A stretch of DNA of 2,312 nucleotides from Escherichia coli (GTDB lineage Bacteria > Pseudomonadota > Gammaproteobacteria > Enterobacterales > Enterobacteriaceae), in NCBI RefSeq assembly GCF_044324785.1, contig NZ_CP172133.1; one strand, written 5' to 3'. The notes below the pieces were generated by a model, which made no database searches, had not been told where the DNA came from, and was given only the letters and a program-made list of their open reading frames with translations. The position numbers were made by a program, and so were the translations under genes. Shown one piece after another: positions 1 to 2,312 of this stretch. The first letter of the stretch is position 1; each line of letters starts with the position of its first letter.

Positions 1-44
1 CGTGTACAGGATACTCCTGTAACGTGTGGGCGGTATTCCCGTAA
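1..44. repeat. Two tandem 22-bp iteron-like direct repeats (1-22 cgtgtacaggatactcctgtaa; 23-44 cgtgtgggcggtattcccgtaa), upstream of the repL-like gene
   Basis: Head-to-tail 22-bp units with 15/22 identity to each other; unit 1 is 19/22 identical to the unit at 2291-2312. Each unit starts cgtgt and ends gtaa. No spacers, so not CRISPR. A 22-bp period is typical of plasmid iterons. Confidence 0.55.
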
Positions 45-52
45 TCTATATT

Positions 53-118
53 GAGTGACATTTTGTTTTTTGGGCATTATATTGTCTGTCACCTTTATAA
101 AGTGACAAAGGCGATAAA
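53..118 (+). promoter_or_regulatory. Putative promoter/operator region of the repL-like gene, with three GTGACA/TGTCAC hexamers (55-60, 87-92, 102-107) forming an inverted repeat around a palindromic cTTTATAAAg core, and a weak AAGG ribosome-binding site at 108-111
   Basis: Inverted hexamers tgtcac (87-92) and gtgaca (102-107) flank the palindrome ctttataaag (92-101), with another gtgaca at 55-60. Possible -35 TTGAGT (51-56) and -10 CATTAT (75-80). The promoter hexamers are weak and the assignment is tentative. Confidence 0.3.
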
Positions 119-616
119 ATGAACATTACTGAAAGAACGGATAGCAAGAAAAAAGTTTTAAGACAAAATATTACTGAGGTTATAGATAGAGAAACTGGAA
201 ACATAACACAAGAAATAACCGATATAACAGTTCAATTTCCACAAGAACCTGCGTATGTGAAAATTTATATTGATAATTTATGTGCTGTCACAAAAGCACC
301 TGATTCTCTAAAAGATGTTTTATTTTTAATTCTTAGGAAATTGGATTATGACGGATATATTGCATTATCAACTAGATACCGTAAGGAGATCTGTAAATTA
401 TTGGGAATAAAAGACGGAACATTACGTAACAGATTGTATTCATTATCAAAAATGGGGATTATTGCTAGTTGTGGCGGTAATGAATATCAGGCGAACCCTA
501 ATTTATTTGCTCGTGGTGAATGGAAAAAAATAATTGAACAGCGTCGCGAGTTTGAAATGAGAATTAAATATTCACCTAACGGTGAAACTATTATAACAAC
601 CGAAGAAATAAAATAA
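119..616 (+). CDS. Winged-helix DNA-binding protein, RepL-like plasmid replication initiator (165 aa)
   Basis: Intact ORF, ATG at 119 and TAA at 614-616. By-eye similarity to the staphylococcal pSN2 RepL family as I recall it: YVKIYIDNL resembles FVKAYIVQL, the central segment LSTRYRKEICKLLGIKDGTLRNRLYSLSKMGII resembles the RepL helix-turn-helix/wing, and NPNLFARGEW resembles NPELLMRGDD. Iteron-like repeats lie immediately upstream. Confidence 0.7.
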   Translation: MNITERTDSKKKVLRQNITEVIDRETGNITQEITDITVQFPQEPAYVKIYIDNLCAVTKAPDSLKDVLFLILRKLDYDGYIALSTRYRKEICKLLGIKDGTLRNRLYSLSKMGIIASCGGNEYQANPNLFARGEWKKIIEQRREFEMRIKYSPNGETIITTEEIK

Positions 617-625
617 TGTGCACCT

Positions 626-655
626 AAATAAGGTCTTTTTAAAAAGACCTTATTT
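626..655. terminator. Perfect 30-bp palindrome (aaataaggtcttttt|aaaaagaccttattt) between convergent genes; putative bidirectional terminator or protein-binding site
   Basis: Positions 626-640 are the exact reverse complement of 641-655. It lies between the repL-like stop (616) and the mobC-like stop (650-652). The stem is AT-rich with a GGTC/GACC core and has no clean downstream U-tract on either strand, so terminator function is uncertain. Confidence 0.35.
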
Positions 656-1075
656 GAATAAATCCGAACCTGGATATTTATTTTTATGTATCCTTTTTAT
701 TATTTTTATTTCATCCTTTATTAAATCCATTTCATTATATACATCAGAAATTCGCTTCGTTACTATTTTCATTTCATCGCAAAGTAAAATTATTTTATGC
801 ATCACCTCGAGGTACTCCTTATCCTTCGGCCGCTTTCCCTTATCAAATAATTTCTTCTGCATCCGACCAAGTCGGATTAATTCATCTAAATACCTGGAAG
901 GTACGCGCTGTTTTATTTCATTATTTAAACTTGCCGTCCTGATATATTCTGAAATTGTCAGTCCTTCGTTCTTCGCTCGCCGTCTGATTTCGCTTGCGAC
1001 TCTGTTATTTACTCTAAGGGTGATAACCTTAGTTCTCTGCCGTACTTCTGAACCACTACGTTTATTTTTAGCCAT
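650..1075 (-). CDS. Ribbon-helix-helix relaxosome accessory protein, MobC/MbeC-like (about 141 aa from the ATG at 1075; the ORF track extends to an upstream GTG at 1174)
   Basis: The N-terminal region has the hallmark basic stretch, beta-strand and helix: RQRTKVITLRVNNRVASEIRRRAKNEGLTISEYIRTASL, matching the KRxxxVxVRLTxEExxxLxxxAxxxGxSxSEYLR pattern of mobilization accessory proteins. I prefer the ATG at 1073-1075 because a GGAGAG Shine-Dalgarno sits about 10 nt upstream (minus-strand reading), whereas the 1174 start is GTG with no good ribosome-binding site. Stop TAA at 650-652. Confidence 0.7.
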   Translation of the reverse strand: MAKNKRSGSEVRQRTKVITLRVNNRVASEIRRRAKNEGLTISEYIRTASLNNEIKQRVPSRYLDELIRLGRMQKKLFDKGKRPKDKEYLEVMHKIILLCDEMKIVTKRISDVYNEMDLIKDEIKIIKRIHKNKYPGSDLFK

Positions 1076-1144
1076 CGCAATGACTCTCCATTTTGCACGT
1101 TTGGGGTGTCGGGGCTTGCCCTGACAGGAGGTATTCTCATGCAA

Positions 1145-1181
1145 GCGAATGTATTCGCGGTATGACGAATACACATCCTGT
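1145..1181. other. Candidate oriT: overlapping inverted repeats (gcgaat-gt-attcgc at 1145-1158; gtattcg-N8-cgaatac at 1151-1172) followed by cATCCTGt (1174-1181), which matches the MOBP-type nic consensus YATCCTG|Y
   Basis: Inverted repeat followed by a nic-like heptamer about 70-100 bp upstream of the preferred mobC-like start, which is the usual oriT placement. The heptamer alone would occur about once by chance in a sequence this size; the adjacent inverted repeats and the position are what make it a candidate. Confidence 0.3.
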
Positions 1182-1437
1182 CCAATTTTCCGCTACAACT
1201 TTTCGACGAAAATAAAATACCGCGTCGTAACTTGGTATTTCTGATACAAAAAAATGATGCTTCATTCAATATTATTTACACAGATTTTAAAATTATTGCT
1301 TGTTATTTAATAAATAACATCGAATTAATTGATGTCTTTGTTGTCTGTCGTTTGTGGATTATTAGAGTGATAAAGATTAGATCTTCCTCGTTATATAATC
1401 CATTGCCTGTTAATGATACGGAGTGAGTCCAAGGAAC

Positions 1438-1451
1438 AGGAAGCGGAAGAG
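1438..1451. repeat. 14-bp exact direct repeat aggaagcggaagag (second copy at 2133-2146)
   Basis: Exact match read directly from the sequence. The copy at 2133-2146 is part of the ColE1-like gcgaggaagcggaagag motif. Confidence 0.8.
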
Positions 1452-1509
1452 CAAGATAGTAGCATGTACATAAAATATAAATCCGTGAGTTATTGATATC
1501 GCGTTTATA

Positions 1510-1524
1510 TATTAAAAATATAAC
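1510..1524. repeat. 15-bp exact direct repeat atattaaaaatataa (second copy at 2231-2245)
   Basis: Exact match read directly from the sequence. Both copies are in AT-rich DNA adjacent to gatatc-containing sequence, one on each flank of the GC-rich block. Confidence 0.8.
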
Positions 1525-2082
1525 TTAACATTGCTCTTAATATTTATTTTGTCCTGGCAATGGGAGCATTAATCCCCGTGCAGTGCTCCGCCAGCTGCTG
1601 ACAACCTCGACATATAACCATCGATACGATAGAACATCAGGGCGCGTTTCCGGCAAGAACTAACCATGGGGATGGTTTGCGTGCCGACAAACGCCGGAAC
1701 GCGCCTCAAATCCACCAAGCCGCCACGGTTCCGGCAGCGCCTTGAGCGCAACCCGAAACCGTCTGGGGAGAACCCCAGACCCCCACCGCTGCAACATCAT
1801 CGGTCTACGACCACCTACCAACCGAGTGGCTACCTGTGCCGTGCAAACAGGCTTTGCAGGGGGCTGGCGCGGTTCCTGGCGACCTGAAAGCCCCTGGTTA
1901 GGGGTATCGGCGCGCCTGGCCTCCTGAAACCCTCTGTAAGCGTTTTTCGCGCCTTCCATGCCCTGACGGGCATTTAGACCCCGTTTCGTGCGTCTGGGAG
2001 GCTCTGAGCGCGTTTAACAGATGACCAGCGACTCGATCGCCTGAGATCAAATCGGGATCATCAACGATATGCGAGAGGTGAC

Positions 2083-2146
2083 ACCGCTCGCCGCAGCCCC
2101 AGCGACCGAGCCGCCAGGCTCGCGAGTGGGCGAGGAAGCGGAAGAG
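2083..2146 (+). other. Segment homologous to the conserved sequence just downstream of the ColE1/pMB1 origin (the region reported to hold primosome assembly sites)
   Basis: Window accgctcgccgcagcc-ccagcgaccgag-ccgccaggctcgcgagtgg-gcgaggaagcggaagag aligns with pUC19 accgctcgccgcagcc-gaacgaccgag-cgcagcgagtcagtga-gcgaggaagcggaagag from memory, in the same orientation and order relative to the cggttcctggc motif. Confidence 0.55.
2133..2146. repeat. Second copy of the 14-bp direct repeat aggaagcggaagag
   Basis: Exact match to 1438-1451. Embedded in a GGAAG triplet cluster (2134-2156). Confidence 0.8.
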
Positions 2147-2160
2147 AACCGGAAGCTACA

Positions 2161-2178
2161 TTGAGCACGCACGCTCAA
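2161..2178. repeat. Inverted repeat ttgagc-acgcac-gctcaa at the GC-rich/AT-rich boundary
   Basis: 6-bp arms are reverse complements with a 6-bp spacer, read directly from the sequence. Confidence 0.5.
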
Positions 2179-2268: not shown

Positions 2269-2312
2269 GGGCTGATCGCCAATGTTGTAACGTGTAGAAG
2301 ATACACCTGTAA
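2269..2312. repeat. Iteron-like 22-bp unit (2291-2312 cgtgtagaagatacacctgtaa) preceded by a possible degenerate unit (2269-2290), continuing in phase with the units at 1-44 if the molecule is circular
   Basis: The 2291-2312 unit is 19/22 identical to 1-22. The window ends exactly at a unit boundary and starts exactly at the next. The 2269-2290 unit keeps only the terminal tgtaa and a few other positions. Confidence 0.5.

Follow-up and report, generated by a model that had tools for sequence, protein, structure and literature searches.

Results

Does a small plasmid of Escherichia coli that encodes its own initiator carry, in addition, an origin derived from ColE1? The question is raised by the 2,312-nucleotide stretch of contig NZ_CP172133.1 analyzed here (the window), for which the original prediction had described a mosaic replicon with two origin signatures: iterons with a RepL-like initiator gene, and a GC-rich block resembling ColE1/pMB1 origin DNA. 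Our analysis indicates that the window is probably an ordinary, modular plasmid with a single replicon, mobilizable but relaxase-less, and not a two-origin chimera; this degree of confidence refers to the reading as a single replicon plus an ssi site as a whole. The basis is formed by homologies, the repeats, covariation in a hairpin, the distribution of the modules among plasmids, the absence of RNA I/RNA II, and the junctions of a natural cointegrate. What had been observed earlier is partly confirmed, and its interpretation is partly supported.

The window represents a whole circular plasmid of 2312 bases and matches several E. coli plasmids of 2310–2313 bp end to end at 96.6–99.7% identity, p2EC1-4 (NZ_CP047575.1) being an example; these matches come as two pieces because the records begin at different points. 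Identities of 99.7–99.9% were also obtained for several E. coli plasmids of this size. The same plasmid is on record from Klebsiella and Actinobacillus as well, and at least 1000 contigs encode the identical Rep protein. In PLSDB, the plasmid is typed Col(MG828). Its RefSeq annotation comprises only two genes, encoding a "replication/maintenance protein RepL" (119–616) and a "plasmid mobilization protein MobA" (650–1075, minus strand). The contrast between an AT-rich and a GC-rich part was evident, with GC contents of 24–45% over positions 1–1500 versus 58–64% over 1600–2100.

A predicted ssiA-type hairpin accounts for the likeness to ColE1

Comparison of positions 1556–2160 with ColE1 DNA gave a single significant alignment, between window positions 2083–2146 and ColE1 positions 1308–1367 (76% identity, E = 7e-6), while the rest was without similarity. 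The same region aligned with the plasmid pPCP1 (79% over 82 nt, E = 1e-12). In the ColE1 record, RNA I was located by Rfam at 645–749, which places the origin at approximately 1200 and the aligned segment approximately 110–170 nt downstream of it. This is the presumed position of ssiA (n'-pas) in ColE1-type plasmids. Located past the RNA/DNA switch, ssiA serves on the displaced strand to bring in PriA for assembly of the primosome, from which lagging-strand synthesis proceeds (PMC3167613).

The second resemblance that had been claimed, at 1870–1880, did not hold: only the 8-mer GTTCCTGG is common to ColE1, and sharing of an 11-mer was reached in 38 of 500 shuffles, which is chance level. Positions 1556–2082 showed no similarity to the RNA II/origin region of ColE1 (641–1310), the longest common word being 8 nt. 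The window gave no RNAI (RF00106) match, whether the gathering threshold or a limit of E ≤ 1 was applied, and no other Rfam family was found in the GC-rich block; the positive controls ColE1, pPCP1, and the ColE1-type plasmid L017 (NZ_CP142935.1) scored 62–81 bits. The earlier impression that an RNA I/RNA II region is missing was therefore correct. The elements of the GC-rich part considered in the following are:

1714–2025, plus strand: conserved GC-rich non-coding core of 312 bp with several strong hairpins (from conservation and position)
2084–2143, plus strand: predicted ssiA-type primosome assembly hairpin (phiX174-type ssi) of 60 nt, composed of CCGCTCGCCGCA, a variable stem-loop, and GAGGAAGCGGAA (from homology to ColE1)
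2159–2176, plus strand: short motif CATTGAGCACGCACGCTC at the right edge of the common module, kept in all sister plasmids

The flanks of the hairpin were used for a scan of one genome per species, which gave 120 loci and, together with the plasmids in hand, 49 distinct variants; the invariance of the flanks was set by the search pattern and carries no weight as evidence. The inner stem showed complementary changes (GTCGAT/ATCGAC, GAACGGAT/GTCCGTTC, GGATTAACC/GGTTAATCC, and GTTTTGAC/GTCAAAAC). For the 28 alignable variants, RNAalifold predicted one hairpin. Pair counting gave seven pairs and 44 cells altered on both sides, a result reached by none of 500 shuffles. Stem cells were paired in 87% of the cases versus 29–43% with the partners slid. 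The ColE1-like part, which had been suspected to be decayed, keeps its stem paired through compensatory changes.

A query containing the hairpin gave matches in more than 5000 plasmid records. The hairpin was located upstream of rep in a MobQ/Rep plasmid and upstream of the initiator gene of an IncX4 plasmid. Judged by these matches, the 60-nt hairpin is not specific to ColE1; it is common to thousands of otherwise unrelated plasmids. Positions 2084–2143 appear to represent an ssiA-type primosome assembly site with predicted PriA-dependent activity. Two origin signatures, or the capture of a decayed ColE1 origin, are not indicated, as the only ColE1-like piece is this putative ssiA-type hairpin, which is common in non-ColE1 plasmids.

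Two observations concern further copies of the hairpin. The I-complex-like RepA plasmid L016 (NZ_CP140467.1) has two, at 1355–1416 and 3329–3415, which lie in opposite orientations and flank repA and core-like DNA, recalling the ssiA/ssiB pair of ColE1; an Rfam PK-repBA pseudoknot is found upstream of its repA. In the window, the 14-mer AGGAAGCGGAAGAG from the 3' flank of the hairpin (2133–2146) recurs at 1438–1451, following a CCTGTT...AACAGG stem (1406–1440), and this second copy is without the 5' flank CCGCTCGCC. Positions 1406–1451 may thus hold a further priming hairpin, either vestigial or alternative to the first, situated in the AT-rich region that would enter the recipient first.

Iterons, promoter, and RepL-type initiator gene

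The predicted iterons are present as three tandem 22-bp direct repeats across the circular junction (2286–2307, 2308–2312 plus 1–17, and 18–39), none being expected by chance according to shuffled sequences. The unit TGTAACGTGTNNNNGATACNCC has a period of 22 bp. Related plasmids contain other repeats at the same place and with the same 22-bp spacing, each set accompanied by a different Rep allele. The features of this part are:

2286–2312, plus strand: iteron 1 (2286–2307) and the first 5 nt of iteron 2 (repeat search, 0 matches in shuffles)
1–39, plus strand: rest of iteron 2 (1–17) and iteron 3 (18–39), presumed RepL binding sites and origin core
55–83, plus strand: promoter-like site of repL with −35 GTGACA (55–60) and −10 TATATT (78–83), 10 of 12 consensus positions
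87–107, plus strand: 21-nt near-palindrome TGTCACCTTTATAAAGTGACA directly before repL (read from the sequence)
119–616, plus strand: repL-family initiator gene, 165 aa, winged-helix type (Pfam, tblastn, hhalign)
626–655, no strand: perfect 30-nt palindrome where the convergent genes repL and nikA-like meet (inverted-repeat search)
2177–2285, no strand: AT-rich spacer leading from the shared module to the iterons (composition)

The 165-aa protein itself gave a weak match to Pfam PF05732 (RepL; E = 2e-4, residues 10–138), and 15 of 21 homologues matched this family at E ≤ 0.001 (best value 4.8e-9). In tblastn searches, it was approximately 30% identical over nearly the full length to annotated RepL proteins from Bacillus, Priestia, and Streptococcus (E = 1e-11 to 1e-15), and hhalign related it to the RepL alleles of sister plasmids with 87% probability (E = 4e-6). 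These family, homologue, and tblastn matches bear out the earlier naming of the gene as repL-like. No solved structure related to the protein was found by sequence.

The near-palindrome at 87–107 would, by its position and symmetry, serve as an operator. Four copies of the heptamer AGTGACA, in direct or complementary form, are found around the repL promoter (54–60 and 87–107) and one in the AT-rich spacer (2188–2194); these heptamers may be operator half-sites for RepL autoregulation, separate from the iterons. The 30-nt palindrome is likely a bidirectional terminator, and the AT-rich spacer is presumed to be the unwinding region.

The module order resembles that of pHW126-like plasmids

The Rep proteins of pHW126, pIGRK, and pIGMS31 are of the winged-helix type and distantly related to RepL, and the replication module of this family consists of an ssi-like palindrome, a short conserved region (CR), four 20-bp iterons with 2-nt spacers, and rep; the ssi is dispensable for replication, and its loss results in higher copy number and multimers (PMC6854812; bioRxiv 10.1101/2022.12.05.519187). 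These plasmids of Gammaproteobacteria resemble the window plasmid in being small (2.3–2.9 kb) and mobilizable and in encoding a RepL-related winged-helix Rep. In the window plasmid, hairpin, iterons, and rep follow in the published order and with the 22-bp period, and the motif at 2159–2176 may represent the CR. It differs in having three iterons instead of four, an additional 312-bp GC-rich core upstream of the hairpin, and a NikA-like gene plus oriT without relaxase gene where pHW126-like plasmids have a MOBV relaxase.

The closest analogue was pKP13a, a 2459-bp MOBV plasmid of Klebsiella with a Rep 36% identical to that of the window, in which the hairpin comes first, then four or five direct repeats of 22 bp, and finally rep. 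The likeness to the pHW126 family was judged by the published layout and by this 36% identity to the pKP13a Rep. The order hairpin, iterons, rep is the one published for pHW126 and the other members of its RepL-related family, and a Rep protein beside the hairpin is therefore a normal arrangement; the combination of Rep and iterons with ColE1-like DNA, which had been taken to suggest a chimera, is the layout known from pKP13a and the pHW126 family.

Firmicute RepL plasmids (pSN2 family) encode Rep proteins of the same Pfam family, PF05732, with approximately 30% full-length similarity, but belong to another host phylum and are without the enterobacterial ssi, GC-rich core, and oriT modules. 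The replication mode of the Firmicute plasmids is itself unsettled (bioRxiv 10.1101/2022.12.05.519187).

The GC-rich core is combined with different Rep cassettes

The GC-rich block had been described as non-coding, and this was confirmed. The open reading frames at 1660–1959 (minus strand) and 1666–1887 (plus strand) are typical of GC-rich DNA, and their homologues contain indels of 1, 2, and 8 nt; a coding function was rejected. The core (1714–2025) was found in 756 plasmid records, in 575 of them at near full length and mostly at 90–95% identity; IncF-type records were not evident among the sampled rows of these matches. The core was also considered as a G4-type (primase-only) ssi or plasmid G site; phage genomes gave no match to it except for contaminating small plasmids or vector pieces, and there was no similarity to G4 or other phage origins. 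The folding energies of both strands of the core were better than those of shuffled sequences (z = −2.3 and −3.5), and the two strands were not separated by this criterion.

Most core carriers are plasmids of 1.45–1.55 kb that encode only a 146-aa replication protein and are typed Col(MG828); they are likened here to pKL1 by size class only. They share positions 1714–2174 with the window plasmid at approximately 88% identity, upstream of and co-oriented with rep, and are assigned the same PlasmidFinder/MOB-suite type. Their 146-aa Rep has only a winged-helix stretch in common with the window Rep (29% over 49 aa). They differ further in that nikA is missing and an oriT follows directly after the hairpin. 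This oriT is R64-like, and the 1.5-kb plasmids, of which L001 (NZ_CP103478.1, 1458 bp) is an example, have no mob gene and are classified as non-mobilizable by MOB-suite; they also contain, in opposite orientation, a sequence resembling the bom/nic region of ColE1 (GTATACACTCCGCTATCGCTACGTGACTGGGTCATGGCTGCG). pBuzz was considered as a relative of these plasmids and dropped, being a 1982-bp rolling-circle plasmid of another family.

Nine small plasmids were rotated to a common frame for the comparison of module order. All nine showed the same sequence of core, variable linker, hairpin, GCAC(G/T)TACGCAC, plasmid-specific region, and rep, in one orientation, and homology among them ended just past the GCAC(G/T)TACGCAC motif. 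In most, the plasmid-specific region contains direct repeats that vary with the Rep allele, often with 22-bp spacing; by their sequence pattern, these allele-linked repeats have the look of iteron-initiator pairs. In the strain EC21Z-147, two plasmids with near-identical cores and different Rep/iteron cassettes coexist, and the core accordingly does not behave as an incompatibility determinant of the RNA I type.

Parts of the core also occurred in other settings: approximately 780 bp upstream of the IncX4 initiator gene and contiguous with the hairpin, approximately 400 bp downstream of repA in the I-complex-like plasmid, and, in a plasmid of Arsenophonus, approximately 680 bp ahead of a rep gene. 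The ColE1-type plasmid L017 has RNA I, its own hairpin beside the origin, and rop, with the core separate and approximately 1 kb further on. As the core of L017 lies apart from the origin, it is not ColE1 origin DNA. Positions 2501–3000 of L017 contain the core, the linker, a deleted hairpin, GCACGTTCGCAC, and an R64-like oriT (ACATCCTGTCC), in the order of the 1.5-kb plasmids. L017 is typed Col(MG828) in addition to its ColE1-type cluster, and the core appears to underlie the Col(MG828) assignment.

At the left of the GC-rich block, a 90-nt stretch (1618–1704) is 77% identical (E = 4e-11) to positions 2416–2505 of Yersinia pestis pPCP1, beyond rop. Unrelated DNA is found in its place in L009, L010, and L014, all of them sister plasmids, as for a separate exchangeable cassette.

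From its conservation and position, the core would be an origin-accessory or single-strand priming region. That it belongs specifically to a lagging-strand origin is conceivable, though somewhat short of probable.

Mobilization module and natural cointegrate

The mobilization module consists of one gene and an oriT:

650–1075, minus strand: gene for a NikA-like ribbon-helix-helix relaxosome accessory protein, 141 aa, named MobA by PGAP (Pfam, NCBIfam)
1103–1185, plus strand: I-complex-type oriT, aligning with IncK2/Z plasmid DNA that lies 15 bp ahead of nikA

The gene had been taken for mobC-like. Its 141-aa product matched the NikA-like family PF21983 (E = 3.4e-16) and the NCBIfam MobA model NF041264 (98.5 bits versus a cut-off of 80) and was 43% identical (E = 2e-25) to the protein in the nikA position of an IncK2/Z conjugative plasmid; it is accordingly NikA-like and not MobC, MobC and NikA-like proteins both being ribbon-helix-helix relaxosome accessory proteins. 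The oriT contains the inverted repeat TGTCGGGGC-TT-GCCCTGACA (1107–1126) and the nick region ACATCCTG|TCC and is 76% identical to that of pCERC7 (NZ_KX356458.1) and 75–76% to those of IncK2/Z plasmids. No relaxase gene is present among the two annotated genes of the plasmid.

The whole window plasmid (99.8–100% identity) is found within the 79.8-kb IncK2/Z plasmid pTMSA992 (NZ_KR905387.1, 3001–5330), exactly at its oriT. Both junctions of this cointegrate lie within the common sequence ACATCCTGTCC (window positions 1173–1183), which places the predicted nick at 1180|1181 on the plus strand. The ATCCTG|Y nick position is established for MOBP oriTs. The cointegrate looks like the outcome expected of relaxase-mediated oriT-to-oriT recombination, its IncK2/Z partner is likely a helper for the window plasmid, and mobilization by an I-complex conjugative plasmid is indirectly supported by it.

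A NikA-like protein beside an R64-like oriT, with the relaxase provided in trans, is described for pCERC7, NTP16, and pU302S in the passage of PMC9282650 that summarizes Moran & Hall 2017. Because it combines a NikA-like gene and an oriT without a relaxase gene, the window plasmid is grouped with these relaxase-in-trans plasmids, an assignment supported by the cointegrate. The three share the adjacent NikA-like gene and R64-like oriT and the missing relaxase, but are ColE1-type replicons, whereas the window plasmid is of the RepL type; its NikA has 141 aa with a C-terminal extension.

The block 650–2170 is common to plasmids with other Rep/iteron cassettes at 85–95% identity, and the unit conserved across 890 plasmids comprises nikA, oriT, the core, and the hairpin. 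The notion of a chimera is thus upheld as far as modularity is concerned, but not with respect to a second origin. In a search of the window for a Xer/cer-type site (XerC arm, 6–8-bp spacer, XerD arm), the best candidate had 7 mismatches in 22 positions and was no better than shuffles, and whole-plasmid comparison revealed no similarity to ColE1 cer.

Discussion

Proposed replication and transfer of the plasmid

In the scheme that we propose, the RepL winged-helix protein (119–616) would bind the three iterons (2286–39) just upstream of its promoter and start replication there. The core (1714–2025) and the hairpin (2084–2143) would form a GC-rich, host-dependent accessory module upstream of the iterons. 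When exposed on single-stranded DNA, ssiA would recruit PriA, PriB, DnaT, and DnaC, leading to the loading of DnaB and primase. The ssiA-sense strand is the plus strand, which would be displaced by synthesis that leaves the iterons in the repL direction and proceeds around the circle, and the hairpin would come into play last as this displacement proceeds. In rolling-circle plasmids, the single-strand origin is likewise situated just upstream of the start site. The proposal would fit what is reported of pIGMS31, a mixture of rolling-circle and theta intermediates, and the mode of the window plasmid may be rolling-circle-like or theta.

Nicking at oriT (1180|1181) and transfer are likewise predicted for the plus strand. 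Since displaced strand and predicted transferred strand are the same, the hairpin would provide the origin of the complementary (lagging) strand during vegetative replication and again in a recipient after conjugative entry. Transfer would involve the plasmid's own NikA-like protein and oriT together with a relaxase from a co-resident I-complex plasmid such as IncK2/Z. The GC-rich core may be part of the priming region or may serve transfer.

Several findings weigh against parts of this scheme. In L017, the core persists beside the oriT while the adjacent hairpin is deleted, and for this reason the core may serve transfer or something else rather than replication. The hairpins of the core are near-invariant and show no covariation or compensatory changes, and the core is without strand-specific wobble bias (G-T versus A-C, 11 versus 11). 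In the hairpin 2084–2143, the wobble bias toward the plus strand is weak (10 versus 5 in the same counts), and the assignment of the strand therefore rests on the homology to ColE1. Matches to the DnaA-box and IHF consensus sequences in the window were not above chance, and the window plasmid has only three iterons versus four in pHW126-like plasmids.

Alternative roles of the GC-rich part

The core and the hairpin might together provide a start that is independent of Rep. A host-made primer, laid down by primase or by RNA polymerase at a structured site or R-loop within 1714–2025, would expose ssiA 60–430 nt downstream, similar to ColE1 in mechanism and not in sequence, and RepL and the iterons would represent a control or a second route. 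The core is followed by the ssiA-sense strand in the same order as ori and ssiA in ColE1, positions 1926–2143 are kept together as a single conserved block ahead of the IncX4 rep gene, the core is common to plasmids with barely related Rep proteins, and plasmids that have only this block in common receive the same Col(MG828) type. However, the GC-rich block has neither a promoter-like site nor an Rfam match, every core plasmid has a rep gene and most have private iterons, and two core plasmids coexist in one strain. The pKL1-type origin is placed upstream of repA, with Rep-binding sites, in the passage of PMC3832669 citing Burian 2003, and the minimal origin of the pHW126 family consists of CR and iterons, the ssi being dispensable (PMC6854812). 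We consider a Rep-independent start unlikely, and the same holds for the wider idea of core and ssiA as a portable Rep-independent initiation cassette, without RNA I control and unrelated to ColE1 in sequence. Were it true, at least five kinds of replicons would make use of this cassette (two RepL subfamilies, the pKL1-size plasmids, IncX4, and I-complex-like RepA), it would occur separately in a ColE1-type plasmid, and the window plasmid would have two ways to start DNA synthesis.

A role of the core in transfer, as an oriT-linked aid to the establishment of the incoming strand or to relaxosome formation that travels with I-complex-type oriTs, is comparably doubtful, at least as its main function. 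The unit conserved in 890 plasmids does include nikA and oriT along with the core and the hairpin (650–2170), the module abuts R64-like oriTs in the 1.5-kb plasmids and in L017, the latter has kept the core despite the lost hairpin and an ssiA of its own, and the structured strand is the predicted transferred strand. Parts of the core nevertheless lie beside rep genes and not beside oriTs in the IncX4, I-complex-like RepA, and Arsenophonus plasmids, and the position and orientation of the module relative to rep are fixed in 9/9 small plasmids. This explanation partly overlaps with the scheme proposed above, because complementary-strand priming serves both processes.

That the GC-rich block is a remnant of ColE1 RNA II/ori/ssiA captured by a RepL replicon, forming an active or decayed second origin, is highly improbable and largely refuted by the Rfam and alignment results: 2083–2146 has co-oriented homologues in ColE1 and pPCP1, situated there just downstream of the origin, the block is foreign in composition to the rest of the plasmid, and the module does move between replicons, but RNAI is absent, 1556–2082 is without similarity to ColE1 RNA II/ori, the 1870–1880 motif is at chance level, the hairpin is present in many non-ColE1 replicons, neither the core (90–95% conserved in 575 plasmids) nor the covarying hairpin is decaying, and L017 has its own ssiA beside the origin with the core approximately 1 kb away, so that the core is not ColE1 origin DNA.

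What remains in common with ColE1/pMB1 is an ssiA-like hairpin of 56–60 nt with identical flanks (CCGCTCGCCGCA...GAGGAAGCGGAA), 76% identity to ColE1, and displaced-strand orientation. RNA II, RNA I, the RNA/DNA switch, and rop are all missing from the window plasmid, and its hairpin precedes the iterons and rep, whereas in ColE1-type plasmids it follows a transcript-primed origin.

Implications for small enterobacterial plasmids

The window plasmid is common and already annotated, and its layout matches that of published RepL-related and NikA-type plasmids. The oriT-to-oriT cointegrate would be a natural record of a helper relaxase acting on it. As a highly conserved cis element, the core is exchanged among Rep cassettes of unrelated kinds, so that the Col(MG828) label does not stand for one replication system. 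With more than 5000 records and clear covariation of its stem, the hairpin ranks among the most widely shared non-coding elements of plasmids, and finding it in plasmid typing or sequence scans should not be taken to indicate a ColE1 replicon.

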